The notes under the pieces were generated by a model. The model had not been told where the DNA came from. It made no database searches and saw nothing but the letters and a program-made list of their open reading frames with translations. From contig CAZOHR010000001.1 of NCBI GenBank assembly GCA_964579045.1, positions 1 to 43,793 of the forward strand: a DNA stretch of 43,793 nucleotides, given 5' to 3'. Position 1 is the first letter of the stretch; every line of letters starts with the position of its first letter. The position numbers were made by a program, and so were the translations under genes. This DNA comes from an uncultured Bacteroidales bacterium. GTDB lineage: Bacteria; Bacteroidota; Bacteroidia; Bacteroidales; ML635J-15. Below are positions 17,498 through 42,318 of this stretch, one piece after another.

Positions 17498-20400
17498 ATG
17501 AAAAATTACATATTTTTATTTCTATTTGTTTTATGTTTTGGTTTCTTTGCTAATGCCCAAATCAGCACTTTCCCTTGGAACGAAGATTTTGAATCTGCAG
17601 GTCTGCCATCGGGCTGGACTCAGGAGTATGTTAACGCGAGTGTAAATTGGCAAACTTATGCTGGGGGTACTTATGGAATGCCATCTTCTTCATATTCAGG
17701 CACAAAAAATGCGTTTTTCTCATCCGATAATTACGATGACAATCAAACGATTCTAATTAGTCCCCAACTTGATTTATCTTCTCTCACAAATCCGATTCTG
17801 AGTTTTTATCATGCCCAGATACCTTTTGACACAGATCAAGACGAACTTAGAATTTATTATAAAACATCTGCAAGCGGACCTTGGATTTTATTGCAGTCAT
17901 ACACTACCGCTGTGATGAGTTGGACTTTTCGTCAGATTATTTTGCCCGAAACGTCGAATGATTTTTATATTGGATTCAGTGCGAAATCGGGATATGGCCT
18001 AGGTGTTTGTGTCGACCTTGTAGAAGTGCAAAATGTTGAACCTTGCCTTGATCCAACAGCTATTTCTATATTGCAAGCTTCAGATTCGGGTGCAGTAATT
18101 GATTGGCTTGCTGGAAGTTCAGAATCAAACTGGCAGGTAGAGTATGGAGTTCAAGGCTTTACTCAGGGTGGAGGGACACTTGTCAATACAACCGAGTCCA
18201 CACACACATTCACATCTCTTTCTGCTAACGAAGATTATGATTTCTATGTGAGAGCATATTGTAATCCTTTGTATAGCGATTGGGTAGGCCCTTTCAGCTT
18301 CTCAACAATTTGTGCAATTGCTGATATCTTTCCATATAATGAGGGATTTGAAAACACAACAGCTCCTGTGCCATGCTGGAGTATGGAATATGCAAACCCT
18401 ACACCCAATAGCGGCAACTTAATGACCCACAGTAACTCCTTTGCTTTTGAAGGAGCTAGATCATTCAAATTTTGTAGCTATTACATTGGAGCACCTTATA
18501 ATCAATATCTTATTAGCCGTCAATTTGATTTTCCTCAAGAGATGCAAGTCAGTTTCAGATATAGAAAAAACACAAGTGGTACTGAAATTTTCTGTGTTGG
18601 AACTTCATCAACAACGGATGCAGTATCTTCTTTTACATGGGGCGAAAATGTCACAAATGCAAATTCAACTTGGAAATACTTCAGTTTAGAAATTCCAGCG
18701 AACACAAAATATATTGCAATTCAGTACAAATCTAATTTTCAAAATTCATTGTTTGTAGATGATCTGCAAATTAGAAATGCTACTAATTGTTATGAGCCTG
18801 TTGATGTTACTATTGGCACAGTAGGCTCTACTACGGCAGTAGTTGGATGGACTGCTGTAAATGGAGAAACAACATGGAAGCTAGAATACGGTACCGCTGG
18901 TTTTACACAAGGTTCTGGTACAATAATCAATACAGGCTTAAATCCATACACAATCACAGGTCTTAATTCCGAGACACAATACGATGTTTATGTAAAAGCT
19001 GATTGTGGTACTCCCGAAAGTATCTTTACAGAAAAAAAGAGCTTCACAACTTTGCCAGCTTGTTTGCCAGTGACGGGTTTTCAAGTTACTTCAAATACAA
19101 ATAGTAGTGTTAGTTTAAGCTGGAATACCAATGCCGCGGTTTTTTACGAAATAGAATACGGTGTAGATGGATTTATACAAGGTTCTGGAACTACAGTTTC
19201 GTCAATTGTTACAGGAACAAAAACGATTACTGGTCTTCTCGAAAACACCGCCTACGATTTTTATGTCCGCGCTTATTGCGGGGCTGCAAATGGTTTTTCG
19301 GATTGGAGCACAGCAGTAAGTTGCATCACATATCCTTGTGCTACAGGTTGTTTTTACACATTTACTCTTAACGATTATTGGGGCGATGGTTGGGGAAATG
19401 TTAGTCTTGGAATCTATCAGGATGGAGAATTAACAAATACACTTAAAATCGAATCAGGATATACTTTGGAAAGTCAAATCTACATATGTGATATTTCAAA
19501 TGTCGAAATCGTTTTAAATCAAGGAAGCTTTGCCGACGAATGCTCTTTCTACGTTTACACACCTTATGATGTATTTGTTTATTCTAGTGATTTTGAAACT
19601 TTAGGGTCTGTTCCTGACCAAACGGTACTAAATAGTTTTACTGGTGATTGTAGTGAACCAGATTGTTATCCGCCATCGAATACTTCCTATTCACAACTTT
19701 TGTATAGCTCATGCATGATAAGTTGGCAGGCTGGAAATGGTGAAACTTCATGGAATGTAGAATATGGTGCTGCTGGATTTTTACCAGGTTCGGGGACATT
19801 AATTTCTGGCGTTACTGAAACCACATATTTACTAAACAGCTTAACTCCTTCAATGGCTTATGATGTCTATATTTATGCAAATTGTGGCGTGTCTGGATTA
19901 AGCAATCCTGTTGGGCCCGTTTCTTTTACCACATCAGCAGCACCTATTGCATTAGATATTTGTGGGCTTAGTCTTAATATTCCAGATAATTCCTTCTCAA
20001 ATGCAAATTTTGAAGTTTCTGGTTTGGTACCATCAAGTCCTTTTACACATTTCAATCTAGAGTCAGTTTCATTTATAATTCAACATCCTTATGATGCGGA
20101 TTTAGAGTTGTTTCTTGAATCTCCCGAAGGCGTAACAGTTACTCTTATTCAAGATAATGGTGGAATTGGTGATAATTTTGGAGATGTTGGTGGTTCTTGT
20201 ACTTATAAAACTATATTGTCGCTTAATCCTGTTAATGGAAGTATTGCTTCTGGCACAGCTCCATTTAATGGAAATTACTCAGCAATCGGCGATTTGAACA
20301 ACTTCAATACAGGAGCAGATTTAAACGGGCTTTGGAAGCTCAAAATTGTTGATGATAATAATTTATATACAGGTAAGTTACAATACTTTAATCTCAGTTT

Positions 20401-21589
20401 TATTGAAACCAAAGCACTTTTTGCTGACGATGAAACATTTTTTGAAAATGTTACCAATGATGGAAGTATAAGTAATACTATCTCCCTTCAACTATACAAC
20501 GAAAGTTTTGCTACAATGGGTAATCTTGTCGAAAATACAGATTTTGAGGTTCTGAATTTGCCAAGCGGACTGTCTGTTCAGATAAATGTAACAGGAGCAG
20601 ATATGGCAGATATTAGTTTAGTCGGGAATGCAATTGATAATATGACTGACCTTAACAATTTAATTATAAGTTTAAAAAATGCTGCTTTTGTAGGGGGAGA
20701 TGCTAATGCTGTCGAAGGGTCGATTTTGAATTTTAACATAGATTACCTAACAGTCATAAACTTGACAAATAATTCTGTTTCCGAAACTGTTATTTGTGCT
20801 AATGAAACATATCCAGTTTTTGTTGATTATTCTTTTACCAATAATAGTGAAACTACTCTGGAAATCGGCACCGAAATATCGCTAGATGTTGAATCTCCTG
20901 TAGGTTCATTAGCTTTTACTGAGGTAATTACTCTACAAGAAGTTTTGGCAATCGGTGAAAATGTGTTGGGTGAATGCACTACACCTTTGTATTTTGATAT
21001 TCAAGGGGAACATACTGTTTCTACAGAAGTCAATATCGCCAATGATGTTAATTCTGCAGATAATGAAATTATGGTTTTATTTGAGGCAGTTACTCACCAT
21101 AGCGAATTTCCACAATCTGTAAATGACACTATATATGTTGACGCCTTCCCATTTGGTATATATGCAACTGCAGTATTCGAGCCAGTTGAGTATACTCAAG
21201 TTTTGTATTATTTCTGGAATGGAGAGTCTGGATCTGCCTCGTATGATGTTTTCGCTGAAGGATGGGTCTATCTAAATACAGAATCAAATTACTGTAATGT
21301 GATGGATTCAATTTATATTGCACTAGGCACTTCGATACCAACTGAATCGAAAACCGAGTTCAGTATTTATCCCAATCCTGCCAATGATGTTATTATTATT
21401 AATTCATCAAATATTGACGCACAACGAATATTTATTTGTGGTGTAGATGGCAGAATTTATATTGAGTCAAATATAACTGAGCAGAATAATACATTTGAAT
21501 TATCTGTATCTCAGCTATCTCCTGGATTATATTTTGTAATTGTCGAAAGCAATACAGGAAGTTATAAAAAGAACTTTATTAAAATGTAA
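17498..21589 (+). CDS. large T9SS type-A cargo: choice-of-anchor-J/MAM-like modules, four Fn3-like modules, orphan proprotein-convertase P domain, type-A sorting domain
   Basis: The ORF-track start at 17468 is a TTG. In-frame ATGs are at 17480 (MHLKYF) and 17498 (MKNYIFLFLFVLCFGFFANAQ, a clean signal peptide). FPWNEDFESAGLPSGW is recognised as a choice-of-anchor-J-type motif, and PYNEGFENTTAPVPCW is its counterpart at the second module. Four Fn3-like units share W-x-x-EYG-x-x-GF-x-x-GSGT...Y(D)FYVRAYC (nt ~18044-18310, 18788-19060, 19061-19330, 19663-19940). P domain at nt ~19961-20405 (VSFIIQHPYDADLELFLESPEGVTVTL...NGLWKLKIVDDNNLYTGKLQYFNLSF). C-terminal FSIYPNPANDVIIIN...GLYFVIVES is the CTD. 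Confidence 0.8.
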   Translation: MKNYIFLFLFVLCFGFFANAQISTFPWNEDFESAGLPSGWTQEYVNASVNWQTYAGGTYGMPSSSYSGTKNAFFSSDNYDDNQTILISPQLDLSSLTNPILSFYHAQIPFDTDQDELRIYYKTSASGPWILLQSYTTAVMSWTFRQIILPETSNDFYIGFSAKSGYGLGVCVDLVEVQNVEPCLDPTAISILQASDSGAVIDWLAGSSESNWQVEYGVQGFTQGGGTLVNTTESTHTFTSLSANEDYDFYVRAYCNPLYSDWVGPFSFSTICAIADIFPYNEGFENTTAPVPCWSMEYANPTPNSGNLMTHSNSFAFEGARSFKFCSYYIGAPYNQYLISRQFDFPQEMQVSFRYRKNTSGTEIFCVGTSSTTDAVSSFTWGENVTNANSTWKYFSLEIPANTKYIAIQYKSNFQNSLFVDDLQIRNATNCYEPVDVTIGTVGSTTAVVGWTAVNGETTWKLEYGTAGFTQGSGTIINTGLNPYTITGLNSETQYDVYVKADCGTPESIFTEKKSFTTLPACLPVTGFQVTSNTNSSVSLSWNTNAAVFYEIEYGVDGFIQGSGTTVSSIVTGTKTITGLLENTAYDFYVRAYCGAANGFSDWSTAVSCITYPCATGCFYTFTLNDYWGDGWGNVSLGIYQDGELTNTLKIESGYTLESQIYICDISNVEIVLNQGSFADECSFYVYTPYDVFVYSSDFETLGSVPDQTVLNSFTGDCSEPDCYPPSNTSYSQLLYSSCMISWQAGNGETSWNVEYGAAGFLPGSGTLISGVTETTYLLNSLTPSMAYDVYIYANCGVSGLSNPVGPVSFTTSAAPIALDICGLSLNIPDNSFSNANFEVSGLVPSSPFTHFNLESVSFIIQHPYDADLELFLESPEGVTVTLIQDNGGIGDNFGDVGGSCTYKTILSLNPVNGSIASGTAPFNGNYSAIGDLNNFNTGADLNGLWKLKIVDDNNLYTGKLQYFNLSFIETKALFADDETFFENVTNDGSISNTISLQLYNESFATMGNLVENTDFEVLNLPSGLSVQINVTGADMADISLVGNAIDNMTDLNNLIISLKNAAFVGGDANAVEGSILNFNIDYLTVINLTNNSVSETVICANETYPVFVDYSFTNNSETTLEIGTEISLDVESPVGSLAFTEVITLQEVLAIGENVLGECTTPLYFDIQGEHTVSTEVNIANDVNSADNEIMVLFEAVTHHSEFPQSVNDTIYVDAFPFGIYATAVFEPVEYTQVLYYFWNGESGSASYDVFAEGWVYLNTESNYCNVMDSIYIALGTSIPTESKTEFSIYPNPANDVIIINSSNIDAQRIFICGVDGRIYIESNITEQNNTFELSVSQLSPGLYFVIVESNTGSYKKNFIKM

Positions 21590-24500
21590 TGAATAAGCTA
21601 TACCGAAACATCATAATTTACATATTACTTGTTTTTTCAATTACAGGTTATTCTCAAAGTATCGAGATTAGTAAAGACTACAATAGCCCTACGCCTTTCG
21701 TGTATAATTCTGCTGATGACTTCTATTTTGTCTCCATGCTCGGAGGCAATTGCCAACCGATTTCTATTCCCAGTTGTACGCGACTATATAATTCAAACAA
21801 TAGCTTTTTTCAATTTACAGCAAATGATGGGGGAAATTTTAAACTTGAGTGTGATTTTCGTGATTCTGTAGCTGGTGGCATTAGTTTCTTTGTTCAGAAG
21901 AATGGTGTTTTAAAAGAATTATATTGCACAGATTTTAATACCAATTTGCTGTTGGTAAAGTATATAAACAGCAATATTGCTGGAGAGACAATAATTGCAC
22001 AAGTTTGGTTTCATCAAACAGAAGTGGATTATGGTGCACACCTTAAAATTACCGATTTTGCAGGCTATGGAAATACAAAAGTTCCAGATATTGATATCAC
22101 CACTTATACTCCAGAGCAGCTTGTCAACGATGTCTTGATTTCTGGTTGTGTAGAAGCATTAAATATTACTTATCAGGGTGATGATCAAAGTATTGGATAT
22201 TTCGAAAATGGAGTTCCTGGACTTAGTTTTACAAAAGGAATTGTAATGAGTTCGGGTAGGGTAACAAATGTGCCTGGTCCAAATGATTCTGGTTCCGAAG
22301 GCTCAAATATGCACGAGCCGGGAGACAACGATCTGGAAGCTATTATTGGTGGAATGGATACTCACGATGCTGCTGTTCTTGAATTTGATTTTATCCCAGC
22401 TAGTAATGTTGTTAGTTTTGAGTATGTTTTCGGTTCAGAAGAGTATGAAGAATTTGTAGGACAAGGCTTTAATGATGTGTTTGGGTTTTTTGTTAGTGGT
22501 GGCCCAGAAGCATACACAAATGTAAACATAGCAAGAATTCCCGTTGTTGGTGTTCCAGTTAGCATTAATAACGTAAATCAGACAGATAATTCGGCGTATT
22601 ATGTAAATAACGATGGTGGCGTTCATCTCCAATTTGATGGAATGACAGTAACCTTAACTGCCGAATTAAATGTTACGCAATGCCAAACTTATCATATGAA
22701 ACTTGCGGTTGCTGATGTTGGTGACGGCATATATGACTCGGGCGTTTTTCTTAAAGCAGGGAGTTTTAATTCAGGTGCAAGTGTGGAGCTGCGAAATTAT
22801 AATGCATGGGGTCTCGAAGGCTTTGTGCACGAGGGCTGCACCAACGATATCATCTTTGCTAGATCAGATTTATCTAATCTTAGTGATCCGATGTCTGTGC
22901 TGATTTCTATTGATGGTACTGCAATAAATGGCACTGATTATACAACGATAAATACCAACTACACTATTCCTGGAGGGATCGAATTTATTACGACAGACCT
23001 TGAAGCGCTTGTTGATGGAATTACAGAAGGCCCCGAAACAGTAATAATTACAGTTTACAATGGATGTCCTTGTAGTGTACAAACCGCATCCGACACAATT
23101 ATTATTCTTGACCAAATAGTATTCACTCCAACTTTAACAAACAATGGACCGGCTTGTCCTGGCGATTCTGTTCTTTTAAGTATTAGCTATCTGCCAGTAC
23201 CCGACACTTGTCGTGTGGAGTGGAGTAATGGGGTTATCGGACCTTCACAAATTTGGGTTACGCCCGTAGCAACAACAACTTATACTGCAAATATATATTA
23301 TCCATGTAGTGTAAAAACTGTATCTACAACAGTTGTCGTTAACGTAGCACCAAATGCAACGGCTTCAAATGATGGCCCTTATTGTGTAGGCGATCCTATT
23401 CATTTGTTTTCATCTGGTGGGGCAACTTATCGTTGGCGAGGACCTAGTTCATATCTTAGCTTGCAACAAAATCCTACAATTAATAGCTCTCAATTGTTGA
23501 ATGGTGGTACCTATCAAGTTACTGTTACTGGGGCGAATGGTTGTAAATCGATTGCCTCAACCTTTGTAGAAGTATATCCTTTACCAGTTGTTGATTTAAG
23601 TGCCAATACTCCGTTTTGTTCAGGCGACCCAATAAGCTTTATAATTGATACTTTCCCCGATTATTTTTACTACGGTCCAAATTCATGGAGTTCTGTTGAC
23701 AGTTTTCCAATCATTAGTAATGTAGACGAAACAAATGAAGGTTGGTATTATGTAATTATTACCGACACAAATATGTGTCGTGATATTGATTCTGTTTTTA
23801 TTGAAGTTAATCCTACACCTGTTGCTAACGCGTGGACAAATTCACCGATATGCGAAGGAGGTCTTTTGCAATTATTTTCTGATGGTGGTCCTGATTACTC
23901 ATGGACAGGGCCTGACGGTTTTACTTCGACAGATCAAAATCCATTTATAAATCCTGCTCTTCCAGTAAATTCGGGAGACTATACAGTGACAGTAAGAAAT
24001 ATTTATAATTGTTCTGATACTTTCACCGTAAGTTATACGGTTTACCCTACGCCAGATGCAAGTTTTACAAACCCTGGTCCACTATGTATTAACACCCCAA
24101 ATATTACACTTAGTCCAGTAAATTCAGGTGGCACTTGGAGTGGCACTGGAATTATAAATGCAGTTACTGGGGTTTTTAGTCCTGCAACTGCTGGTGCTGG
24201 AACACATATAGTTTCGTATTCTCTTATTCAGAACGGGTGTGTTGGTTCATTTTCCAATTCTATTGTTATTGATGCAATGCCTGTAATCAATATTAGTCCA
24301 GCAGGTCCATTCTGTGTATCCGATGCTGCTGTTAATCTCTCTGCTACAGACTTAGGTGGAACATGGAGTGGTACTGGAATTACTGATGCCATCTCTGGAA
24401 CTTTTGATCCAAATGTTGCTGGAACAGGAACTCATACCATAACTTATACTCTTACAAACGGTACATGTACTGATGCAAATAATATTTCGATTGTTGTTAA

Positions 24501-27500
24501 TTCAGTTGTTGATGCTACAATAAACCCATCTGGTCCATTTTGCGAAACGGATGCTTCTGTAAATATGACTGCAGCAATGCCATTAGGCACATGGTCTGGT
24601 ACTGGGATTACAGATGCTGCTACTGGAACGTTTGATCCTACTGTTGCAAATCCTGGTATACATACTATTTCTTATAGCCTTACAAACGGAGGTTGTAGTG
24701 ACACTGATACAGAGCTAGTTACGGTTTATTTATATCCTAATTCTGATTGGGGCATTATAGGTCCTTTCTGTGAGACTGATGCATCGGTAAATATCCTACC
24801 AGTTACTGTAGGTGGTTCTTTTTCTGGAACAGGAATTACAAATGCAGCAGCAGGAACTTTTGACCCTTCTATTGCTGGAGCTGGCACGCACATAATTACT
24901 TACACTGTAGTAAATGGCGCCTGTACTTCAGTTACGACAAAATCAATTATTGTTTTCGAGAGCGTTGATGCCACAATTAGTCCTTCTGGTCCTTTTTGCG
25001 AAACAGATCCTGCAGTAATTCTTACAGCTGCTGATGCTGGTGGAACATGGAGCGGTACAGGCATTGTAAATGTTATAACAGGAGCATTCGATCCTGCCCT
25101 TGCAGGACCTGGTGTGCATACCATAACCTATAATATTGCCAATGGTACTTGCAACGATACTGATAGCGAACTTTTAACTGTTTACTCTAATCCCAATGCA
25201 GACTTTGCTATCGCTGGTCCATTTTGTGAAAACGATGCCGCTATTAACCTTGTTTCTGTAAATCCAGGCGGAACATGGACTGGAACTGGTATAACTAACG
25301 CTGTAAATGGCACATTTAACCCAGCTGTGGCTGGTCCGGGAGTTCATAGTATTACTTACACTATCGTTAATGTAGAATGCACTGATTTTGTAGTGAGAAC
25401 AATTACAGTTAACACTGCTGTTGATGCCACCATTACGGCTGGCGGTCCATATTGTCAAAATCAGGCTGCGATTAATTTGACTGCAGCAGATCCTGGTGGA
25501 GCATGGAGTGGCACAGGAATTACAAATCCAACTACTGGGAATTTTAATCCAGCAATTGCTGGTCCAGGAATTCATACAATTACATATTCAATTGCTAACG
25601 GAGCTTGTTCCGACACTGATACCGAAATATTTGTAGTGAATCTATATCCAAATTCTGCAATCACCCCAGCTGGGCCTTTTTGCCAAGCTGCTGCTGCGGT
25701 AAATCTTGTTGCTGCCTCTGCTGGTGGAACATGGAGTGGAACAGGCATCACTAGTTCGGCGCTGGGAACATTTAATCCTGCTGTGGCTGGTAGTGGAAAT
25801 CATACAATTTCATACACAGTTATTAATGGGGCCTGCACATCTGTTAGCAGTACTGTTATTCATGTTGATGCTTCTGTAAACGCAACAATAACTCCAGTAC
25901 CCGCAGTTTGTGTCTTTAATCCTGCATTTAATCTTACTGCCGTAAGTTCAGGTGGAACTTGGAGTGGAACAGGGATTACCAATTCTACAAACGGTACTTT
26001 TGATCCTACCATTGCCGGTGCTGGAATTCATATCATTACTTATTCTGTAACAAACGGTACTTGTTCTGATACTGATACAGAAAATATTAATGTTTCTGCA
26101 AACCCTAATCCAACAATAATTGCTGCAGGTCCATTTTGCTCAACAGCAGCAGCACTTAATTTAACGGCCGCTACAGCAGGCGGAACTTGGAGCGGAGTAG
26201 GAATTACAAATGCAGCTCTTGGTACTTTTGATCCAAGCATTGCTGGGAGTGGAAATCATACAATTACTTATCAGATTACTCTTGGAGCTTGTTCTAATTC
26301 AGATACCGAAGTAATTCATGTAGATGCAAATGTAAATGCTACAATTACTCCTGCTGGTCCGTTCTGTCAGTTCGACCCTGCGGTTAATCTAACAGCGGTG
26401 TCGCCAGGAGGAACATGGGGCGGTTCTGGTATCACTAATACTAGTACTGGAAATTTCAGCCCGAGTGTTGCAGGAATTGGTTCACATAATATCACATACA
26501 GTGTAGTTAATGGTTTGTGTAGCGATTCCGATAATATTAATATTATTGTAAACGTCGCTCCAGATGGAACAATTACAGATCCTGGAGTATTTTGTGTTAC
26601 AGATGGACCAGTTCTGCTCACTGCCGCAACTGCTGGTGGAACATGGGCTGGAACAGGAATCATAAATCCTGTTCTAGGAACTTTCGACCCATCTGTTGCA
26701 AATATCGGCGCTAATAATATAACATACACAATAAGTAACGCATTTTGTACTACAGTGGCAAGCATACAGATTTTTGTTTACAATAATGTTGTTGATGGAA
26801 CAATTACAAGTACTGGTCCTTATTGTGTAAGTTCTAGCGAGTTAATTCTAACAGCTGTTTCTGCTGGTGGTACTTGGTCTGGTACGGGAGTTACAAATCC
26901 TGCCACAGGAGCTTTTAATCCTGGAATAGCCGGACCTGGAAATCATCTGATAACATATAATGTGGGAAGTGTTGCTTGCTTTGATTCCGACACACAACTA
27001 ATACATGTTGACGATACTTTAAGCGCAGTTATTACTTCCGTGGGTCCGGTTTGTGAAACATCGCCAGCATTTAATCTGACCGCTGCAACTGCTGGTGGAA
27101 CTTGGTCAGGTGTTGGGATTACAAATTCTGCGCTTGGCACATTTAATCCTGTTGTTGCTGGTGGCGGAAATTATTTAGTCACATACAGTATTAACAACGG
27201 AGTCTGCACCAATACAGACACTTTTACAGTACAAGTTAGCAATGATGTTGATGCGACTATTACACCTGCTGGTCCATTTTGTAATAATGAGGTTATTCAG
27301 ACACTTGTGGCAGTTAGCCCTGGTGGTACTTGGAGTGGTACTGGGATTGTTAATTCTGTGAATGGATTGTTTCACCCTGTTGTTGCTGGTGGTGGAGATC
27401 ATACTATTACATATTCTGTTGTTAATGGTGCGTGTTCTGATTCAGATACAGAAACCATTCATGTTGATGCATATCCAAATACTACAATATTGGCTGCTGG

Positions 27501-30500
27501 TCCATTTTGCGAAACAAGTCCTGCTGTTATCTTAAGTGCGGCTTCGGCTGGTGGAACTTGGTCTGGAACTGGAATTACTAATCCTTTAACAGGCACTTTT
27601 GATCCATTAGTTGCTGGTGGCGGCAATCATACTATAACTTATGAAATAACTAATGGGGCATGTAATAGCATTTCAACACAGGTAATTCATGTTGATGATT
27701 TTTTTGCTGCAACTATTACTGCCGCAGGTCCTTTCTGTAATACACAGCCTGCTCAGAATCTTGTTGCTGCTTCTACAGGTGGAACTTGGTCGGGAATAGG
27801 AATCACAGATGTAAATGTTGGAATATTTCATCCAGGTGTAGCGGGTCCTGGAGACTTTATAATTCAATATTCTATAACAAATGGACAGTGTAGCGATATT
27901 GACAATATTTCAATACATGTGGATCAATATTTTGATGCTACAATAACTCCGGCAGGTCCGTTTTGTGAAAATTCGGCTGTAATTAATCTTTCTGCAGCAA
28001 ATCCTAGTGGATTATGGAGTGGCAACGGGATAATTGTCCCTGGAGCCGGAACGTTTAATCCCGCAATAGCAGGTTCTGGTAATCATGTGATAACATATAT
28101 AATTACCAATGGTGTTTGTTCATCATCTGATACCGAAACAATTCAAGTTGATGCAGTATTAGATCCTTCAATAGCACCATCTGGTCCATTTTGTCAAAAT
28201 ACTGCTGCCCTTAATTTGACAGCAGCCACTATAGGTGGAACATGGAGTGGAGTGGGAATTACAAACATTACAAATGGCACTTTTAACCCTGCTGTTGCTG
28301 GTCCAGGAAATCATCTTGTAACATACCAACTTGTTAATGGAACTTGTACTTCGTCTGACACAGAAAATATTATTGTAGATTTATATCCAACTACCAGCTT
28401 ATCAGCTTATGGTCCTTATTGCGAGATATCTGCAGCAATTGATTTGGTAGAACCAAGTATAGGAGGAACATGGACTGGAACTGGGATTGTAAATCCAATC
28501 ACTGGATTGTTTGATCCTGCGATTGCAGGTGATGGAACACATCTGATAACTTATACAAATATAAATGGAGCATGTACCTCAACTGGCACAGTCAATATTC
28601 AGCTTGATGCTTCTGTTGATGCTACAATTACCTCCGCAGGTCCATTCTGCAGCAGCGACGGCTCAGTACTTCTTACAGCAGTATCTCCAAACGGGTTATG
28701 GAGTGGAACTGGAATTATAAATCCTGTAACTGGTTTATTTAATCCTGTTTTGGCAGGTGGGGGAACTCACATTATTCAGTATTCTGTGTCTAATGGCGTT
28801 TGCTCTGATACTGACAATACCTCAATAGTAGTTGAATCAAATCCAAATCCTACAATAATTACTACAGGTCCGTTTTGCGAAACTGATGGAAATCAGATAT
28901 TCTCTGCAGCAACTTTGGGAGGTGTCTGGAGTGGTGTTGGAATAGATGTGACTGGCAATTTTAGTCCCTCTGTTGCTGGGGTAGGTTCACACACAATAAC
29001 TTACACTCTTACAATAGGCACTTGTGTTGCAATCGATCAGGTGGATATTACAATAGATCAATTTTTAGATGCTACAATAACATCTTCTGCTAATTTCTGT
29101 ATTATGGATAGCCCTGCTCAGTTATTGTCAGCAAATACTGGTGGAATATGGTCTGGAAATGGGGTTAACTTATCTGGTTTGTTTAGTCCAGTAGTTGCTG
29201 GAGTCGGTAACCATAATGTAACTTATACTATTGTCAACGGAGCTTGTACTGATTCAGATAGTCATGTTTTTAGTGTAAATAATAATCCGGATGCAACAAT
29301 TACTGACAATTCGCCAGTGTGTTTAAATACTCCTGATTTTAGTTTAGTTGCTGCTACGGCAGGTGGAACATGGTCGGGAACTGGAATTTCTGATGCCGTT
29401 GCAGGTATCTTTTCACCAAACACAGCAGGCTCGGGAACTCATACAATTTCATACTCTATCACTGTTGGTGGATGCTCATCAGTTGACCAAACCGACATCA
29501 CTGTAAATGCATTGCCAGCTGTTACGATTTCTAATTTACTGACGGATTATTGTTTAAATGAAGCTGCCGTAACTGTGGGAGTTTCTCCTGCTGGAGGAAG
29601 TTTGACTGGAGATGGAATTAGTGGCACAATCTTTAACCCTGCCACTGCAGGAGTCGGTAATCACCAGATTTTATACACATATTCAGATGTTAATTCATGT
29701 ACGAACATTGCAACTGTTGATGTTAGTGTTCACGATTTACCAACTGTTAGTATTAATGGTATAGATCCTTATTATTGTCTTTATGATGCTGCCGTAAATC
29801 CTGTGTTACTTCCTATTGGTGGAGTTTTTGAAGGTAGTGGAGTTGTTGGAACTTCATTTAATCCAAATGCTGCTGGAGCAGGATCGTTCGAGTTGTTATA
29901 TCATTTCACAGATGTAAATTCATGCACAGATACAGCTTTTGTTAGTACTATTGTTTTGAGTAGTCCTGAAATAAGTTTCAGCTTTATTGAGCCATCTTGC
30001 TTTGGACTTTCTGATGGAAGTATTACAACGTCTATTAGTGGAGGTCTCGAACCTTATGTTTATTTGTGGAGTGATGCAGCCGCTTCGTCTACAACTGATT
30101 TGAATAATATCAATGCCGACATGTATTATCTTACAATTACTGATGATAATTCTTGTGTAAAAATTGACAGTGTTGATTTAACAGAACCAGAAGAACTTAC
30201 GGCTCAAATTACAAATTCTACAAACCCATCTTGTTTTGGTTATAGTGATGGATCTTCGACTGCAGTCGCTAGTGGAGGAACTCCAGATTATTCATTCTTA
30301 TGGGATAATGAAGATGCAAGTACGACAGAAACAGTGAATAATCTTGCTGATGGCGACTATTCTGTTACTATTACAGATTTGCATGATTGCACAGCATCTG
30401 CCACAATTTCCATAACACAGCCTACTGGTATGGAGCTTACTTTTACCGATTTGCAAAATGTTATTTGTTATTCAGAGTCAAATGGTGCTGCAAGTGTTGA

Positions 30501-32073
30501 AGTTTCTGGTGGTTCTCCTTCATATTCTGCTGTGTGGAACAATTCTGCATCTACTTCGGGATTTAGCATTACGAATCTTAGTTCTGGATATTATACAGTC
30601 ACGGTAACAGATTCTCAAGATTGTCAAATTGTTGACTCAGTGGAAATTACTCAACCAGATTCATTATATTTTGTGCCAGTAATAAATCCTGTTATCTGCG
30701 CACTGCAACTTGGTTCGGCAGGAATTACTACCTATGGTGGAACAGTACCGTATGAATTTGAGTGGTCGTCGGGTGAGACTGTTCCTGTACTTTTCAACAA
30801 AATTGCTGGCACCTATTATGTTACAATAGAAGATGCAAATAATTGTATTCTTCAGTCTTTTATCGAAATTGGAACATCTGGTTTTATTAATGCTGAAATA
30901 ACACAAACCGCATATAATCTTTGTTTTAAGGACGAAATTGCCAATATTGTTGCGTATTCAGATAACGCAGCAGATACAAGTTTGTATATATGGTCCAATT
31001 TTATTACTGATTCGATTAATCTAAATTTGGGCGCAGACGAATACTTTGTTACAATAACTGATAGATGGGGATGCAAAGGATTTGATTCAATTACTGTCAC
31101 AGAACCCGATCTTCTCGAACTTGATATAAGTTCGGTCAATATTAAATGTAAAGGCGATCTAACAGGTAGAGCAGGTGTTGTAATTGTTGGTGGAACGGCT
31201 CCATATTATCCAATTTGGCAAAATGGCGACCAAGCATTCTCTAGTAATACTTTACCAGCAGGAAAAATTTGGGTGACAGTTACCGACCATAATGGCTGTG
31301 TAGATAGTATTTCAACAATTATCACTGAACCAGAGACGGAGCTTTCTATTAATTTAGATATTGAACAAATAACTTGCTTTGGTGCAATGGATGCTTCAAT
31401 TAATTCTTATGCATCTGGTGGAACTCCCCCATATTTTTTCAATTGGAATCTACACGGTTTGGTGCTAACTGATCCAACCATTAGATTTCTTGATAAAGGA
31501 AATTACTATCTAACAATAACAGATAATAATAATTGTTTTGCTGACACAACCATAATCTTGTTTGAGCCTGGATTATTGGGGTCTACATTTATTACGAGTA
31601 ATCCGAGCTGTGACGGAAATTACGATGGGCACATTATGATGGCCAGCTATGGCGGAACTTTACCATATTCTTATTTCATTTATGACAATATTGCAACTCC
31701 TTACTTAATTGATTCTTTGTATGAAGGGGAGTACTTTGTAATGGTTAGAGATTCAAATAATTGTGAACATACTACTGGTCCAATTGCACTTATTGATAAT
31801 GATGTCGATTGCATTCATTTTCCAGTTGCATTTAGCCCGAACGGGGATGGGTATAACGATGAATGGTTTATCGAAAATATTCACTTATATCCTAAGTCAG
31901 TAGTCCAGATTTATAATCGATGGGGACAGTTGTTGTATGAGGAGAAAGGGATAGATGGCTATTGGGACGGGACTTTTAATGGGAACCCAGTACCAACAGG
32001 AGTGTATATTTATCTTCTAATTCTTAATAATGACGAGAAAACTCGTACTGGCACATTAACTTTAGTGCGATGA
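21589..32073 (+). CDS. giant (3494 aa) SprB-family cell-surface adhesin with a T9SS type-B (gliding-motility-associated) C-terminal domain
   Basis: Signal peptide [23 protein letters not shown]. Choice-of-anchor-L-like head at nt ~22105-22775 ([69 protein letters not shown]). Four Ig/PKD-like units at ~23150-24040. About 26 tandem two-Cys units. Eight SprB repeats. The C-terminal [41 protein letters not shown]...GVYIYLLIL is the type-B CTD (~31801-32070). Its start overlaps the upstream stop (TAATG). Confidence 0.9.
   Translation: [3494 protein letters not shown]
24040..29965 (+). repeat. in-frame tandem array of ~26 units of ~225-231 bp (75-77 codons)
   Basis: The consensus unit by eye is GPFC-x2-D-x-A-(V/I)-NLTA-x3[10 protein letters not shown]-x5-G-TF(D/N)P-x2-AG-x-G-x-H-x-ITY-x4-NG-x-C-x3-D-x4-I-x-V. 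The GGTWSG-type core recurs 26 times; the last two are degenerate ([20 protein letters not shown]). Confidence 0.85.
29985..31800 (+). repeat. eight SprB-type repeats (~72-75 aa each)
   Basis: Units start at [108 protein letters not shown] and [16 protein letters not shown]. Each is followed by a Y-x-(V/L)T(I/V)TD-x-x-x-C element. Confidence 0.75.
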
Positions 32074-36997: not shown

Positions 36998-39382
36998 CTA
37001 AATTTTAGTTCGAATTGCTTTTAAGCTTGGTAATTCTTTTCCTTCGATATATTCAAGTAAAGCGCCTCCAGCAGTTGATACGTAGCTAATTTTATGAGCT
37101 AATCCATACTTGTTTAATGCCGCAATACTATCACCACCACCAACAAGGGAGAATGCACCAAAGTCTGTTGATCTAGATACCGAGAGAGCGATTTTTATAG
37201 TTCCATTGCAGAAGTGATCCATTTCAAATACACCCATAGGCCCATTCCACAGCAGGGTGTTCGATTTTTCAATCACCTTTGCAAAGGTTTCAGCAGTTTT
37301 TATTCCAATATCTAGACCTCTCCAGCCTTTTGGGATTTCATTGATTTTACAATGTTTGATTCTTGCATCGTTGCTAAAACTATCTGCAATTACACAGTCG
37401 ATAGGGAGATATAATTTCACATCAGTCTTCATAGCTTGTTCAAGAATCTCTCTAGCTACCGGGATATAATCTTCCTCAATAAGTGATTCTCCAATATTTC
37501 CACCCATTGCTTTTATAAAAGTAAATGCAATACCTCCACCAATAATTAGGTTGTCAACTTTCTCCATCAAGGCTCTGATGATATCAATTTTTGTTGAGAC
37601 TTTAGAACCACCGATTATCGCTGTAAAAGGTTTTTCTCCTTTAAATAATACACGATTAATATTATTGACTTCACTTTCGACAAGATAACCTAGCATTTTA
37701 TCATCTGGAAATGATTTTGCTATCATATAGGTTGACGCGTGTGCTCTGTGTGCTGTTCCAAAAGCATTCATAATATAGACATCACCCAAACTGGCAAGTT
37801 TTTTTGCAAATTCTTCGTCGTTTTTTTCCTCAAGTGGATTGAATCGTAGGTTTTCGAGAATTAATACTTCGCGAGGTTTTAATTCTCTCGCCATTTTTTG
37901 TGCTTCCTCTCCAATGCAGTCAGGTGCGAATTTTACATTAGTGTCGAGTATCTTTGTCAGATATGGGACAATGTGCTTAACAGAGTATTTTTCTTCATAT
38001 CCACCTTTTGGGCGACCAAGATGAGTCATAAGAATTATTGAGCCTCCATCTGCCATAATCTTTCTGCAAGTGGGCATTGCAGTTACTATTCTGGTAGTAT
38101 CCACAATATTAAAGTCTTTGTCTAGTGGCACATTAAAGTCAACTCTGATGAGCGCTCTTTTGCCATAGAAATTGTAATCGTCAACACTAAATGATTGTTT
38201 TATTGCTTTAATTGCCGGAAGATTTTTCTTTTCGAAGTACTCCAAAAGAGCGCCTCCAGCAGAGCTAATATATGAAATTTTATGCGCCAGACTGTATTTG
38301 TTAAGTGCAGCAATTGTGTCTCCACCACCAACAACCGAATACAAACCTTTATCTGTAGCACGCGCAACAGAAAGAGCAAGCTTTAAGGTGCCATACGAAA
38401 AGTGTGGTAATTCATAAACGCCCATTGGTCCGTCCCATAATAGGGTTTTAGACTCTTCAATAACTTCAGCAAAGATGTCAACGGTTTTAATTCCGATATC
38501 CAAAGCTCTCCAGCCATCAGGTATTTCGGAAAATTCGCAATGTTCAATATTTGCATCATTACCATTGTGGTCAGCAATGATACAATCAACGGGAAGATGT
38601 ATTTTAACATTGAAACTCTCGGCGTTTTTTAAAATGCGTTTTGCTACTTCGATACAACTCTCTTCAACTAACGAATTGCCAACCGGATAGCCTAAAGCTT
38701 TGGCAAAAGTAAATGCAATTCCACCACCAATGAGCAAATTGTCTATTTTCGGAAGCAAAGTTTCGACAATTCCAATTTTGGTTGTAACCTTGTCGCCACC
38801 AATCATTAGTGTAAATGGACTTTCAGCATTTTTTGAGAGTTTGTCGAGTTTCTTCATTTCGCCTTCAACAACATATCCAAACATTTTATCGTATGGAAAT
38901 GATTTTGCAAGAGTTACTGTTGAAGCATGGTTTCTGTGAGCGGTACCAAAAGCATCGTTTACATAGCAATCACCAAGAGAAGCTATTTTCTGTGCAAATT
39001 TTTCATCAGCATTTAGTTCTTCTTTATAGAATCTGATATTCTCCAACAACATTATCTGTCCGCTTTTTAATCCTGCCGCCACCGCAGCTGTTTCGTCTGA
39101 TAAAGGATTGTCGCAGAAAATCACTGTCCTGCCGATTAGCTTTTCTATTAGAGGAAGCATGTGCTTTAACGATCGCGATTCTACATATTCGCCTTTTGGT
39201 CGTCCCCAATGAGTGATGAGAATAATTGATCCCTTTTCAGATAAAATCTTTTGGATAGTTGGCAAAGCCATTTTTATTCTTGTATCATCTAGGGAATTTG
39301 AATCACTAGTAATTGGAATATTAAAATCTACTCTGAGCAATACTCTTTTTCCATCAAAACTGTAATTGTCTAAGGTGTTCAT
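36998..39382 (-). CDS. pgk: tandem double phosphoglycerate kinase (two complete PGK units fused head to tail in one ORF)
   Basis: 794 aa. Unit 1 is aa 1-396 (nt 38195-39382) and unit 2 is aa 397-794 (nt 36998-38194). The junction ...LPAIKAIKQ|SFSVDDYNFYGKR... has no linker. Both units keep RVDFN(I/V)P, TH(W/L)GRPKG, NAFGTAHR(N/A)HAS or NDAFGTAHR, GG(D/S)KV(T/S)TKI, IGGGIAFTF, LDIGIKT, LW(D/N)GPMGV(Y/F)E, GGGD(T/S)IAA and AGGALLEY. Confidence 0.9.
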   Translation of the reverse strand: MNTLDNYSFDGKRVLLRVDFNIPITSDSNSLDDTRIKMALPTIQKILSEKGSIILITHWGRPKGEYVESRSLKHMLPLIEKLIGRTVIFCDNPLSDETAAVAAGLKSGQIMLLENIRFYKEELNADEKFAQKIASLGDCYVNDAFGTAHRNHASTVTLAKSFPYDKMFGYVVEGEMKKLDKLSKNAESPFTLMIGGDKVTTKIGIVETLLPKIDNLLIGGGIAFTFAKALGYPVGNSLVEESCIEVAKRILKNAESFNVKIHLPVDCIIADHNGNDANIEHCEFSEIPDGWRALDIGIKTVDIFAEVIEESKTLLWDGPMGVYELPHFSYGTLKLALSVARATDKGLYSVVGGGDTIAALNKYSLAHKISYISSAGGALLEYFEKKNLPAIKAIKQSFSVDDYNFYGKRALIRVDFNVPLDKDFNIVDTTRIVTAMPTCRKIMADGGSIILMTHLGRPKGGYEEKYSVKHIVPYLTKILDTNVKFAPDCIGEEAQKMARELKPREVLILENLRFNPLEEKNDEEFAKKLASLGDVYIMNAFGTAHRAHASTYMIAKSFPDDKMLGYLVESEVNNINRVLFKGEKPFTAIIGGSKVSTKIDIIRALMEKVDNLIIGGGIAFTFIKAMGGNIGESLIEEDYIPVAREILEQAMKTDVKLYLPIDCVIADSFSNDARIKHCKINEIPKGWRGLDIGIKTAETFAKVIEKSNTLLWNGPMGVFEMDHFCNGTIKIALSVSRSTDFGAFSLVGGGDSIAALNKYGLAHKISYVSTAGGALLEYIEGKELPSLKAIRTKI

Positions 39383-39427
39383 AGTTAGCGAATTATGTTG
39401 TTTTTTATGAGATTAGCTTTTATCAAA

Positions 39428-39435
39428 CAAACATA
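39428..39435 (-). promoter_or_regulatory. possible -7 box (TATGTTTG) for the double-PGK gene
   Basis: Exact TAnnTTTG match on the minus strand, 46 nt upstream of the ATG at 39382. Confidence 0.25.
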
Positions 39436-39539
39436 GTAATTAAAAGCTTTGAGTTTTGTTTTAAGATTATGTTTTTTATCACAAATTCCTTCAATATTTC
39501 GTTAATAAAAAAATACTTATAAAATTTAAGGAGTTTTAT

Positions 39540-39547
39540 TAAATTTG
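39540..39547 (+). promoter_or_regulatory. putative -7 box (TAAATTTG) for the holB operon
   Basis: Exact TAnnTTTG match 21 nt upstream of the ATG at 39568. Confidence 0.35.
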
Positions 39548-39567
39548 CAACGAGCGAAATTTGCGTT

Positions 39568-40689
39568 ATGAAGTTTGATAAAGTTACTGGACAGAACGAA
39601 ATAAAGGAAAAACTGAGACAGAGTTACTATAGTAACCGACTCAGTCATTCTTATTTATTTTATGGTTTTCCAGGAACTGGAAAGCTTGCTCTAGCTATAG
39701 CTTTTGCTCAATTTCTGTCTTGTGAAAATAAATCAGAAACAGATAGTTGTGGAGAATGCCCTTCTTGTAAAAAATACGAAAAGCTGGTTCATCCAGATCT
39801 TCATTTTGTTTTTCCAGTAATTACCGTTCCAGGAAAAAAATCGATTAGCGACATGTTTATTCAGCAATGGAGAGAAATGGTTCTGGAGGATTCTTATTTT
39901 TCCTACAATGAGTGGATGGCCAAACTTGAAAGCGAGAATAAGCAAGGAAGTATTTATTCGGACGAATCGGCGGAGATAATTAAAAAGCTGAATTTAAAGA
40001 CTTTCGAATCGGATTATAAAATAATGATAATCTGGTTGCCAGAGAAGATGAATGCCTCTTGTGCTAATAAATTGCTCAAAATACTTGAAGAGCCTCCTCA
40101 AAATACAGTTTTTATTCTTGTTAGTGATAATCGAGAGGATGTACTTCCTACGATTTTGTCAAGAACACAGCCTGTGAAAATTCTAGCAATCGAAGATGAT
40201 TGTCTTAAACAGGAATTGATTCGCAGATATAGCATAAATGAGGAGCTTGCCAACGATGTTATTGCAATTAGTAATGGAAGTTTACTTGAGGCAAAAGAAC
40301 AAATTACAACCAGTGAAGAAAATAAGTTCAATCTTTCGCAGTTTATATCATTGATGAGGCTTTCATATTCGCGTAAGATTGATGAAGCTTTGAAATGGGC
40401 AGAACAAATGTCCAAATCGGGTAGGGAGAAACAGAAGAGTTTTTTATATTATTCATCTGTGCTCTTGAGAGAGAATTTTGTGTATAATTACAAACAAAAA
40501 AAGATAAGCTACATGACAAAAGAGGAAGAGGATTTTGCTTCCAATTTTGCTAAATTTGTAAATGCTGAAAATATTGATGACTTGTCAGAGATTTTTAATT
40601 TGGCACATTATCATATTGAACGAAACGGATATGGAAAAATCGTTTTTACTGATATGGCATTTAAGATTATGAAGGTTATTAGGAAATAA
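39568..40689 (+). CDS. holB: DNA polymerase III delta-prime subunit (clamp-loader AAA+)
   Basis: 373 aa. HSYLFYGFPGTGKLALAIAFAQFLSC. Zinc module CGECPSCKKYEKLVHPDLHFVFP. ANKLLKILEEPP box. TILSRTQ sensor motif. Confidence 0.75.
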   Translation: MKFDKVTGQNEIKEKLRQSYYSNRLSHSYLFYGFPGTGKLALAIAFAQFLSCENKSETDSCGECPSCKKYEKLVHPDLHFVFPVITVPGKKSISDMFIQQWREMVLEDSYFSYNEWMAKLESENKQGSIYSDESAEIIKKLNLKTFESDYKIMIIWLPEKMNASCANKLLKILEEPPQNTVFILVSDNREDVLPTILSRTQPVKILAIEDDCLKQELIRRYSINEELANDVIAISNGSLLEAKEQITTSEENKFNLSQFISLMRLSYSRKIDEALKWAEQMSKSGREKQKSFLYYSSVLLRENFVYNYKQKKISYMTKEEEDFASNFAKFVNAENIDDLSEIFNLAHYHIERNGYGKIVFTDMAFKIMKVIRK

Positions 40690-40697
40690 ATAATAAA

Positions 40698-41855
40698 ATG
40701 ACAGATAGAGAGTTTGAAAGAGGTTGTGTGCCATCTTGTGTTGATGAAAATACTGGAAATGTTAATATAAAGCATTGTTGCAACAAACTGAATGTTTATG
40801 ATTGGCTAGGTGATATTAATGATCCAATGTTTCAAAACAAATACGTTGAGGTCAGATTTAAAAATACCAGAAAAGGGATTTACGAAAATGCTTCCGAACT
40901 TCAACTGGAGGTTGGTGATGTTGTTGCCGTAGAGTCATCTCCAGGTCATGACATAGGTATAATTTCTGCTGTTGGCAAAATGGCTCTTTATCAGATGAAG
41001 AGGTACAAAGTGAGCAAAGAGAACGAAATTAAGAAAGTCTATCGCAAAGCCAGAGCAACCGACATACAAAAATGGCAAGAGGCAATTTCAAAGGAAGTTC
41101 CAGTTATGCTCAGAACCAGAGAAATTGCCAGAATGCTCAAATTGACGATGAAAATCGGAGATGTGGAGTTTCAAGGCGATAAAACTAAAGCAATTTTCTA
41201 TTATATCGCAGAAGAGAGAGTAGATTTCCGCGAACTAATCAAAAAAATGGCCGAAGAGTTTCGTATCCGTATCGAAATGAAACAAATTGGTGCAAGGCAA
41301 GAAGCAGGTAGAATTGGCGGTATTGGACCATGTGGAAGGGAACTTTGTTGTACAACATGGATGGCAGACTTTATTTCTGTATCTACAAATTCTGCTAGAT
41401 TGCAGGAGTTATCACTCAATCCTCAGAAGCTAGCAGGGCAATGTAGCAAGCTAAAGTGTTGCCTCAATTATGAGCTATCAGTTTATCTTGATGCTCGCAG
41501 ACAATTTCCAGAGAATATTGTTGCCCTCAAGACTAAACAAGGCGATGCGTATCACATTAAAAATGACATTTTTAAAAGTCAGATGTACTACGAAATCCGT
41601 ATTAATGATATCCCAGTTATCAGAGCATTGCATGTTGATAAGGTGAAGGAAATTATGGACTTAAATAAAAAAGGTATTTTCCCTGATAATGTCTTTGAAA
41701 GCGAAAAAACTGGAGGCCGAGCTAATATTTCGTTTAAAGAGGAGCTAAATTCTGATAGTCTAACCAGATTTGATTCAGGACAGCCAGTATCTAAGAATAA
41801 GAAAAGGAAGAAAAATCGCAATAAAAATAAAACTCAAAACAATGAAAAAGAATAA
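40698..41855 (+). CDS. ricT: PSP1-domain protein (RicT/YaaT-like Fe-S regulatory complex subunit)
   Basis: 385 aa. PSP1 core (GDVVAVESSPGHDIGIISAVG...FYYIAEERVDFRELIKKMAEEFRIRIEMKQIG). Cys cluster GPCGRELCCTTW...QCSKLKCCLNYE. Lys/Asn-rich tail. Lies immediately downstream of holB, as in many bacteria. Confidence 0.75.
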   Translation: MTDREFERGCVPSCVDENTGNVNIKHCCNKLNVYDWLGDINDPMFQNKYVEVRFKNTRKGIYENASELQLEVGDVVAVESSPGHDIGIISAVGKMALYQMKRYKVSKENEIKKVYRKARATDIQKWQEAISKEVPVMLRTREIARMLKLTMKIGDVEFQGDKTKAIFYYIAEERVDFRELIKKMAEEFRIRIEMKQIGARQEAGRIGGIGPCGRELCCTTWMADFISVSTNSARLQELSLNPQKLAGQCSKLKCCLNYELSVYLDARRQFPENIVALKTKQGDAYHIKNDIFKSQMYYEIRINDIPVIRALHVDKVKEIMDLNKKGIFPDNVFESEKTGGRANISFKEELNSDSLTRFDSGQPVSKNKKRKKNRNKNKTQNNEKE

Positions 41856-42318
41856 TTTGGTCTTTGCAATTATTGCAATTGCGTTTGTTGTTATGTCGTG
41901 TGATAGAAATAAGGTATATGAGGAATATACTGAAATTAAGGACTACAACTGGCAGAGTAAAGATGCTGTCAGATTCGAGTTTGAAATTGATGATACTGCA
42001 TCATTGCATAATGTTTATATCAATGTGCGACATGCAAACATGTATCAGTTTAATAATCTTTGGTTATTTGTAAAGTCATCGGCACCAAACGGACAAACTA
42101 ATGTAGATACAGTAGAATGTGTGCTTGCTGACAATTCTGGTAAGTGGCTTGGAGATGGTATGGGCGATATCTGGGATATTCAAATTCCATGGAGAATGGG
42201 TGTTAGATTTCCTGTCAAAGGCAAGTATATTGTGGAATATAAACAGGGTATGCGAGTAGATGTTCTACCTGGTATTATGGATGTTGGTTTAAGGGTTGAA
42301 AAAGCCGAAGTAAAGTAA
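41842..42318 (+). CDS. gldH: gliding-motility lipoprotein GldH
   Basis: The true start is MKKNNLVFAIIAIAFVVMSCD (ATG 41842; lipoprotein signal with Cys). The ORF-track start at 41770 lies inside ricT. The protein is 158 aa. YEEYTEI..W...D...FEFEIDD....YNVYINVRH...YQFNNLWLF matches my recollection of GldH. It overlaps the ricT stop by 14 nt. Confidence 0.7.
   Translation: MKKNNLVFAIIAIAFVVMSCDRNKVYEEYTEIKDYNWQSKDAVRFEFEIDDTASLHNVYINVRHANMYQFNNLWLFVKSSAPNGQTNVDTVECVLADNSGKWLGDGMGDIWDIQIPWRMGVRFPVKGKYIVEYKQGMRVDVLPGIMDVGLRVEKAEVK

Follow-up and report, generated by a model that had tools for sequence, protein, structure and literature searches.

On the minus strand of contig CAZOHR010000001.1, a 43,793-nucleotide stretch of an uncultured Bacteroidales genome (the 43.8-kb window), an uninterrupted open reading frame (ORF) at 36998..39382 encodes a single polypeptide of ~88 kDa composed of two complete phosphoglycerate kinases (PGKs) arranged head to tail. 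The explanation that best accounts for the evidence, to which we assign a probability of roughly two in three, is a fused double PGK of single origin that serves glycolysis and gluconeogenesis, with unit 2 as the canonical catalyst and a unit 1 whose function has shifted.

Two complete PGK units in one ORF

The ORF starts with ATG and encodes 794 amino acids with no internal stop. PF00162 (PGK) was the sole Pfam family found in it, in two full-length stretches scoring 931 bits against a cut-off of 27, and unit 2 covered positions 1–379 of the 379-position profile. When unit 1 (residues 1–396) was compared with unit 2 (residues 397–794) by BLASTP, the two were 57% identical with 77% positives and no gaps over 393 amino acids (E = 2e-171), in agreement with the 55–60% identity estimated by eye in the original prediction. 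Against the PGK part of NF010569, unit 1 scored 439 bits and unit 2 scored 502 bits. The ORF call, Pfam and BLASTP together confirm the two full units of 396 and 398 amino acids that had been proposed, joined at nucleotides 38194/38195 in the absence of a linker. KAIKQ is followed directly by SFSVDDYNF, and the peptide spanning the junction reads ...LPAIKAIKQSFSVDDYNFYGK... Query DNA at the junction contained no in-frame ATG, GTG or TTG.

The motifs by which the units had originally been recognized were all located at computed positions, as the unit 1/unit 2 pairs THWGRPKG/THLGRPKG, AHRNHAS/AHRAHAS, WDGPMGVYE/WNGPMGVFE and SSAGGALLE/STAGGALLE. Residues of both units are numbered below according to human PGK1. 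For comparisons between units, double PGKs were split pairwise into their units and then aligned in register.

The fusion is conserved in a bacterial clade

A search of 5.8 billion protein clusters supplied the homologs, for which we took the 120 top-ranking clusters at 90% identity. The ORF is no oddity of one genome: 116 of these 120 clusters were 790–805 amino acids long, they were 59–92% identical to the query, and nearly all were aligned at 98–100% coverage. The records came from NCBI, JGI, ENA and Logan assemblies, and their source names were Bacteroidales, Marinilabiliales or Bacteroidota metagenome-assembled genomes (MAGs). The fusion is therefore conserved in a clade of uncultured Bacteroidales. 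Clustering at 50% identity collapsed the whole double family to one representative plus fragments, indicating a fairly tight clade.

The near-uniform length of homologs from these four data sources speaks against an artefact, in which faulty assembly, an error in sequencing, or an overlooked stop or frameshift would have merged two ordinary tandem pgk genes. The spacing from GGALLE of unit 1 to RVDFN of unit 2 was 31 residues in 116 of 116 homologs. One homolog lies on a 4.6-Mb contig (ENA ERZ21831104 ctg97523c), and a second copy of the query gene, identical at every nucleotide over 2385 bp, was found on a separate 4105-bp JGI record (L081). The double is also present in assembly GCA_001603595.1. 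DNA from five close and two more distant relatives read through the junction, with one terminal stop in each case. With more than 100 independently assembled full-length homologs sharing a fixed junction, the concern about assembly raised in the original prediction can be set aside, and we regard the chance of such an artefact as negligible.

It is also conceivable that internal initiation, or proteolysis at the junction, yields unit 2 as a separate product, additionally or exclusively. Four NCBI records of relatives contain unit 2 only (395–401 amino acids, with an internal start): MDD2387315.1, HOE03591.1, MBP7462700.1 and HOK38766.1 (P0275, P0281, P0282 and P0458). We compared these entries with the uninterrupted ~795-amino-acid ORFs P0009, P0052 and P0008. 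The NCBI starts look like model-guided choices of annotation, with P0275 corresponding exactly to residues 396–795 of P0009 and lying on a contig of equal length. Beyond the lack of a start codon at the query junction, only 3 of 120 homologs had a Met 8 or fewer residues away from it, and no promoter-like motif was found just upstream of the junction. Internal initiation would moreover leave translation of unit 1 still running on into unit 2. A separate unit 2 product is thus very unlikely. The unit-2-only entries nonetheless hide the double architecture in nr.

As a separate observation, many doubles (the one at locus L087 included) carry a faint precomputed match to PF06962 (rRNA_methylase) between the PGK matches. 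It is probably spurious, since our own scan of the query against Pfam gave no such match.

In-place duplication of the housekeeping gene

To place the units we built a neighbour-joining tree with 60 bootstraps from 66 doubles split into units and 78 single Bacteroidota PGKs, with the T. maritima and B. stearothermophilus enzymes as outgroups. Units 1 and 2 were jointly monophyletic with respect to the single Bacteroidota PGKs in 60 of 60 bootstraps. Eight synapomorphies, each present in at least 85% of both units and in at most 10% of singles, set the doubles apart; they include S to T in THLGRP, M to I in GGGIA, V to I in GGGDSIA and G to A in S-T-A-G-G. The last of these, the change from TGGG to TAGG, had been among the lineage-specific oddities noticed in both units from the start. 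It corresponds to hinge residue Gly394. Among the doubles, 98% of sequences have Ala there, in unit 1 and unit 2 alike; Gly is found in 77 of 78 single Bacteroidota PGKs, which read STGGGALLE at this site. Among the matches listed, the units were 52–60% identical to single Bacteroidota PGKs.

Gene order gave a second line of evidence. A holB homolog lies immediately upstream, in divergent orientation, in 17 Bacteroidota loci with a single pgk, and a divergent holB also adjoins the double in the window and in loci L082, L083, L085, L086 and L087. By position, the double gene is thus orthologous to the housekeeping pgk, and its place in the ancestral holB/pgk slot argues for duplication and fusion of that gene in place. 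The bootstraps, the synapomorphies and the holB slot bear out the earlier proposal of a tandem duplication within the lineage, rather than a joining of distant paralogs. A single fusion is the most parsimonious history because the junction is fixed. We envisage that a one-time tandem duplication of the pgk beside holB, with loss of the intervening stop, would have taken place in an ancestor of this clade, and that the fused gene would have been kept since then with a junction of fixed length.

The nucleotide pocket of unit 1

Across the family, Asp23, Asn25, Arg38, His62, Arg65, Arg122, Arg170, Lys215, Lys219, Glu343 and Asp374 were 94–100% conserved in both units. The residues of the basic patch for 3-phosphoglycerate (3-PG) and 1,3-bisphosphoglycerate (1,3-BPG) reached 97–100%, with sporadic losses in unit 1 of P0012, P0020, P0086 and P0088. 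In the query, both units keep the patch (Asp23, Asn25, Arg38, His62, Arg65, Arg122, Arg170) as well as Lys215, Lys219, Glu343 and Asp374.

The original prediction described unit 1 as having drifted slightly, which understates the change. Unit 1 of the query's subclade has changed at 15 sites where conservation among the singles and every other unit is at least 90%, and several of these sites contact the nucleotide; unit 2 of the same subclade has changed at one site of this kind and the remainder of the family at none. Asn336 and Phe342, invariant in the singles and in every other unit, are Asp and Tyr in unit 1 of 17 of 17 subclade members. Across the 32 clusters of the subclade a signature, DDNYSTW, co-varies in unit 1: Asn336 to Asp, position 214 to Asp or Asn, Phe291 to Asn, Arg, Lys or His, Phe342 to Tyr, Thr393 to Ser, Ser375 to Thr, and Leu63 to Trp or Arg. 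The query itself carries N336D, S/A214D, F291N, F342Y, T393S and Leu63 to Trp. Position 214 is Asp or Asn in 31 of 32 subclade members. Phe291 is kept in 111 of 121 unit 2 sequences and in 87 of 119 unit 1 sequences.

Several of these positions have known roles. The NH2 group of Asn336 contacts the β-phosphate of ADP, and Phe291 and Ala214 are among the listed nucleotide contacts (PMC2441801). Arg38, Lys219, Asn336 and Glu343 are reported to be essential for domain closure, Thr375 and Thr393 lie on a signalling path to the hinge, and Gly394 is one of its two main hinge points (PMC3900376). Both nucleotide contacts Asn336 and Phe291 are present in unit 2 of the query, and are replaced by Asp336 and Asn291 in unit 1. 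The changes in unit 1 thus cluster in the nucleotide pocket and along its connection with the hinge. The earlier statement that both units keep the binding motifs consequently holds for the substrate patch in both units, and fails for the nucleotide side of unit 1 with its N336D, F291N and S/A214D exchanges.

Further losses of core residues were likewise limited to unit 1 of the subclade: P0088 lacks R65, R122, H169, R170 and G396, R65 is lost in P0012, P0020 and P0086, and P0014 carries D374N. The unit 1 branch of the subclade was longer (0.122 versus 0.019), and dN of unit 1 exceeded that of unit 2 in 10 of 10 pairs.

Three states of the family

The remodelled unit 1 of the query's subclade (32 of 119 clusters) is one of three states. 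Two canonical units characterize 80 of 119 clusters. In seven clusters (P0102, P0107, P0112, P0114, P0115, P0117 and P0120) unit 2 carries Gln in place of Lys215, with just four other mild changes, and unit 1 is fully canonical. By its residues, this K215Q subclade appears to be the mirror image of the query's subclade. In unit 2 across the family, Asn336 and Glu343 were each found in 121 of 121 sequences. The fixed, co-varying remodelling of unit 1 in one subclade and the K215Q exchange in unit 2 of another lend support to the idea, raised in the original prediction, that one unit has become specialized.

Selection and predicted structure

The ratio of non-synonymous to synonymous substitution rates (dN/dS) was ~0.03–0.06 for each unit, with dN of 0.05–0.175; with dS saturated in most pairs, these values are to be read in the manner of upper bounds. 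Purifying selection on both units is strong. In the query's lineage, unit 1 gave a dN/dS of ~0.04–0.06.

Each unit is predicted to adopt the two-lobed PGK fold. The AlphaFold model of the double had a mean predicted local distance difference test (pLDDT) score of 85 and a predicted template modelling (pTM) score of 0.51, and one modelled unit matched 3Q3V and 2IE8 with a template modelling (TM) score of 0.96 and a root-mean-square deviation of 1.3–1.5 Å over ~395 residues. The low pTM, together with a pLDDT below 50 at residues 396–398, leads us to make no claim about the geometry between the units, including the obligate pseudo-dimer suggested in the original prediction. Among PDB chains, none spanned two PGK units (TMq at most 0.48).

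Proposed function and its competitors

The double PGK would most likely be the glycolytic and gluconeogenic PGK of this organism. Whether either unit is catalytically active, and what unit 1 does, we infer from the residues they carry. Because it retains every canonical residue, unit 2 would be expected to catalyse the reversible conversion of 1,3-BPG and ADP to 3-PG and ATP by closing about its hinge in the usual way. Unit 1 of the query's subclade retains the basic patch along with the catalytic lysines and would thus appear still able to bind 3-PG or 1,3-BPG, with a nucleotide site that seems altered, fixed and selected. Since its nucleotide pocket carries fixed, co-varying changes, unit 1 has probably ceased to be an ordinary ATP-dependent PGK; it could serve as a weakened or regulatory module that binds 3-PG, or have an altered preference for the phosphoryl donor or acceptor (nucleotide). 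In the query, the most likely arrangement is accordingly a working PGK in unit 2 and a shifted function in unit 1.

The strongest competitor is a simple covalent double enzyme, in which both units would be fully active conventional PGKs, the substitutions in unit 1 would be neutral or mutually compensating, and the benefit would lie in dosage, stability or co-folding. It draws on the fact that neither query unit lacks any core residue for catalysis or 3-PG binding, on the dN/dS of ~0.03–0.06 in both, and on the 80 of 119 clusters that are fully canonical throughout. It does not readily accommodate the replacement of the otherwise invariant Asn336 and Phe342 in 17 of 17 subclade members along with the contacts Phe291 and 214, given that Asn336 contacts the ADP β-phosphate and is reported to be essential for domain closure (PMC2441801, PMC3900376), nor the loss of 3-PG arginines in several subclade members in unit 1 only. 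We therefore consider a simple double unlikely, while still a serious contender.

A number of observations weigh against a double PGK of single origin with a shifted unit 1. The dN/dS of unit 1 is hardly higher than that of unit 2, an observation that speaks against a loss of function and fits a still-working enzyme, and query unit 1 retains Arg38, His62, Arg65, Arg122, Arg170, Lys215, Lys219, Glu343 and Asp374; by these residues it could still be active. The AlphaFold model contains no confident interface between the units. In the neighbour-joining tree neither unit 1 nor unit 2 was separately monophyletic, and the signal for orthology across clades was weak (identity 0.668 versus 0.658), so that the history of the duplication may include some concerted evolution. 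The basal branches of the double tree were very short. We found no localized gene-conversion tract, and sliding-window identity between units 1 and 2 gave no mosaic pattern. A canonical single pgk may exist elsewhere in the genome, the scan having covered the 43.8-kb window, and relatives carry a divergent PGK-family paralog of 428–438 amino acids ('RVDHNVV' type), described below.

Returning to the shifted unit 1, we tentatively suggest a more specific role, for which we would put the chances at somewhat below even. One fused unit may have become an allosteric sensor of 3-PG or 1,3-BPG, or a kinase with an altered donor or acceptor, and be rigidly coupled to the catalytic unit through the fixed-length junction and the Ala394 hinges. 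Sub-lineages would then have chosen opposite units for this purpose: unit 1 in the query's clade and, elsewhere, the unit 2 that carries Lys215 to Gln.

Other PGK genes

The original prediction had raised the matter of a standalone pgk alongside the double. Relatives do carry a standalone gene, the divergent paralog, and the 43.8-kb window itself contains no second PGK of either kind. The paralog and at least 14 doubles lie on contigs of the same size, and in some relatives it adjoins or lies near the double (Table 1). One could suppose from this that the paralog, or an unseen single pgk, performs the housekeeping reaction and that the double has some other role. The paralog scored 270 bits to the Pfam PGK profile and was 28–31% identical to the units of the double. 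By inspection it lacks both the AHR motif containing Arg170 and His169 (NDAFGSWQPHTS) and the WNGP...Glu343 motif. With these motifs missing, and with such a score and identity, it is unlikely to be a housekeeping enzyme. The double, in contrast, sits where pgk lay ancestrally, both sequence and fold mark its units as typical PGKs, and the window is free of the paralog; a non-glycolytic double is thus very improbable. The best 120 clusters matching the paralog were 77–100% identical to the L087 copy, and those from MAGs labelled Desulfobacterales, Desulfobulbaceae and Altiarchaeales were ~80% identical. The presence of close copies in these MAGs suggests horizontal spread of the paralog and a distinct function.

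Surroundings of the double gene

The window is Bacteroidota-like, with GldH, type IX secretion system (T9SS) sorting domains, a TonB-dependent receptor of the CarboxypepD_reg type and a GC content of 35.7%. The Bacteroidota -7 motif (TAnnTTTG) was not enriched in it (65 found versus 61.9 expected), sigma-70 promoter and terminator scans gave results at chance level, and an Rfam scan of the window returned no matches. Two adjacent ORFs of 1373 and 3494 amino acids probably encode giant secreted or cell-surface proteins. Downstream of holB, the PSP1-domain and GldH ORFs overlap by 86 nucleotides if GldH starts at its first TTG; its start is probably further downstream, since GldH of relatives is 158–161 amino acids long.

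Table 1. Features of the double PGK locus, its neighbours in the window and related PGK genes in other records
Feature	Coordinates	Strand	Evidence or context
Complete double-PGK ORF (794 aa + stop)	36998..39382	-	ORF call, two PF00162 stretches, ~794-aa homologs
Unit 1 (aa 1-396), full PGK fold, nucleotide pocket remodelled	38195..39382	-	BLASTP, residue alignment, NCBIfam 439 bits, AF2 model
Unit 2 (aa 397-794 + stop), canonical PGK, all core residues	36998..38194	-	Residue alignment, 502 bits, PDB matches 1VPE/1PHP
Junction KAIKQ/SFSVDD, without linker, stop or start codon	38177..38209	-	Sequence, homolog spacing
Unit 1 GGDKVTTKI: position 214 = Asp, Lys215/Lys219 kept	38774..38800	-	Asp/Asn in 31/32 subclade members
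Unit 1 ADHNGND: Phe291 to Asn	38555..38575	-	Residue counts across units
Unit 1 WDGPMGVYE: Asn336 to Asp, Phe342 to Tyr	38411..38437	-	17/17 subclade versus 100% Asn/Phe elsewhere
Unit 1 SSAGGALLE: Thr393 to Ser, with family-wide Gly394 to Ala	38240..38266	-	Alignment
Unit 2 GGSKVSTKI: Lys215 and Lys219 present	37586..37612	-	Lys215 is Gln in 7 other clusters
Unit 2 WNGPMGVFE: canonical nucleotide/closure motif	37223..37249	-	Asn 121/121, Glu 121/121
Unit 2 STAGGALLE: family-wide hinge Gly394 to Ala	37052..37078	-	Ala 98% in both units versus Gly 77/78 singles
Divergent intergenic region, double pgk/holB; candidate Bacteroidota -7 motifs 39428-39435 (-) and 39540-39547 (+)	39383..39567	.	Consensus matches only
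holB (DNA polymerase III delta'), synteny anchor of ancestral pgk slot	39568..40689	+	PF13177, holB-pgk synteny
1373-aa ORF with fibronectin-III, proprotein-convertase P and T9SS C-terminal sorting domains	17468-21589	+	
3494-aa ORF directly after the 1373-aa ORF	21589-32073	+	
PSP1-domain ORF	40698-41855	+	
GldH ORF	41770-42318	+	
PGK paralog	L087:12552-13838	+	Directly downstream of double; followed by PGM/PMM-family gene
PGK paralog	L001:8419-9723	+	Directly downstream of double
PGK paralog, N-terminus only	L084:1-130	-	~10 kb from double
P0123 double PGK	L088:10001-12394		ENA ERZ21831019 ctg33840l; directly upstream of tpiA

Comparison with known systems

Textbooks present PGK as a monomeric enzyme that bends at a hinge, and for most bacteria a single pgk is described. 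Each ~396–398-amino-acid unit of the double resembles these canonical monomers, such as 1VPE of T. maritima, 1PHP of B. stearothermophilus and 3Q3V of C. jejuni; PDB sequence matches of unit 2 had E values of 1e-117 to 1e-114, and the 3-PG patch, Lys215, Lys219, Glu343 and Asp374 are shared by canonical PGKs and both units. In contrast to the canonical enzyme, the double has two units per chain, Ala394 in its hinges, and N336D, F291N, S214D and F342Y in unit 1. Homodimeric PGKs occur in hyperthermophilic archaea, and the P. horikoshii structure 2CUN was among the PDB matches. Such homodimers likewise have two PGK units per particle; these dimers are non-covalent and made of identical chains, whereas the units of the double are covalently joined and 57% identical.

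The PGK–triosephosphate isomerase (TIM) fusion of Thermotoga (NF010569) is another natural C-terminal extension of PGK. The double differs in lacking the TIM domain (PF00121) and in having a second PGK as its partner. It reached 936.7 bits to NF010569 against a cut-off of 883, with both matches within positions 5–393 of the 645-position profile, and passes this cut-off because the two PGK matches sum. For these Bacteroidales MAGs, metabolic reconstructions could therefore give the enzyme a wrong size or name, both through the unit-2-only entries and through an NF010569 cut-off that is passed without TIM.

A tandem-fused double PGK appears to be undescribed in the literature, as full-text searches found no description of a PGK–PGK fusion. 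Double PGKs are already present in databases under the plain name 'phosphoglycerate kinase', for example MEJ5266952.1 with 797 amino acids. A second family of double PGKs was also found. Proteins of the P0123 family (797–799 amino acids, 7 clusters) are also linker-free, head-to-tail PGK–PGK fusions, encoded directly upstream of tpiA and thus likewise in a housekeeping setting. They differ from the query in being only ~42% identical to it, in keeping the canonical STGGGASLE hinge, and in a junction spacing of 33 residues (counted by hand) versus 31. The GC-rich, non-Bacteroidota-like lineage of P0123 points to a separate origin, and on these sequences the PGK–PGK fusion has arisen independently at least once more in bacteria.

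Further PGK proteins of ~790–950 amino acids (P0417, P0422–P0424, P0441, P0442 and P0450) hint at more origins. Eukaryotic records with 2–5 PGK units were also seen (P0129, P0131, P0416, P0418–P0420, P0445 and P0447), from molluscs (Bulinus, Aplysia), plant gene models of 865–909 amino acids and MMETSP protist transcripts. They could represent genuine fusions, or tandem genes joined in the gene models.

The mammalian 100-kDa hexokinases I–III and eukaryotic phosphofructokinase are glycolytic kinases formed by duplication and fusion. As in the double PGK, a central-carbon kinase underwent duplication and head-to-tail fusion, and depending on lineage both halves look catalytic or one half is altered. 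The three states of the double PGK, with both units canonical, unit 1 remodelled or unit 2 carrying K215Q, may parallel the halves of the hexokinases. Unlike these, the double PGK is bacterial, belongs to an unrelated fold and family, and has an altered half whose regulatory role is putative. With its three coexisting states it offers a natural experiment on the duplication and fusion of a core enzyme, and a way to ask whether two hinge enzymes communicate when they share a chain.

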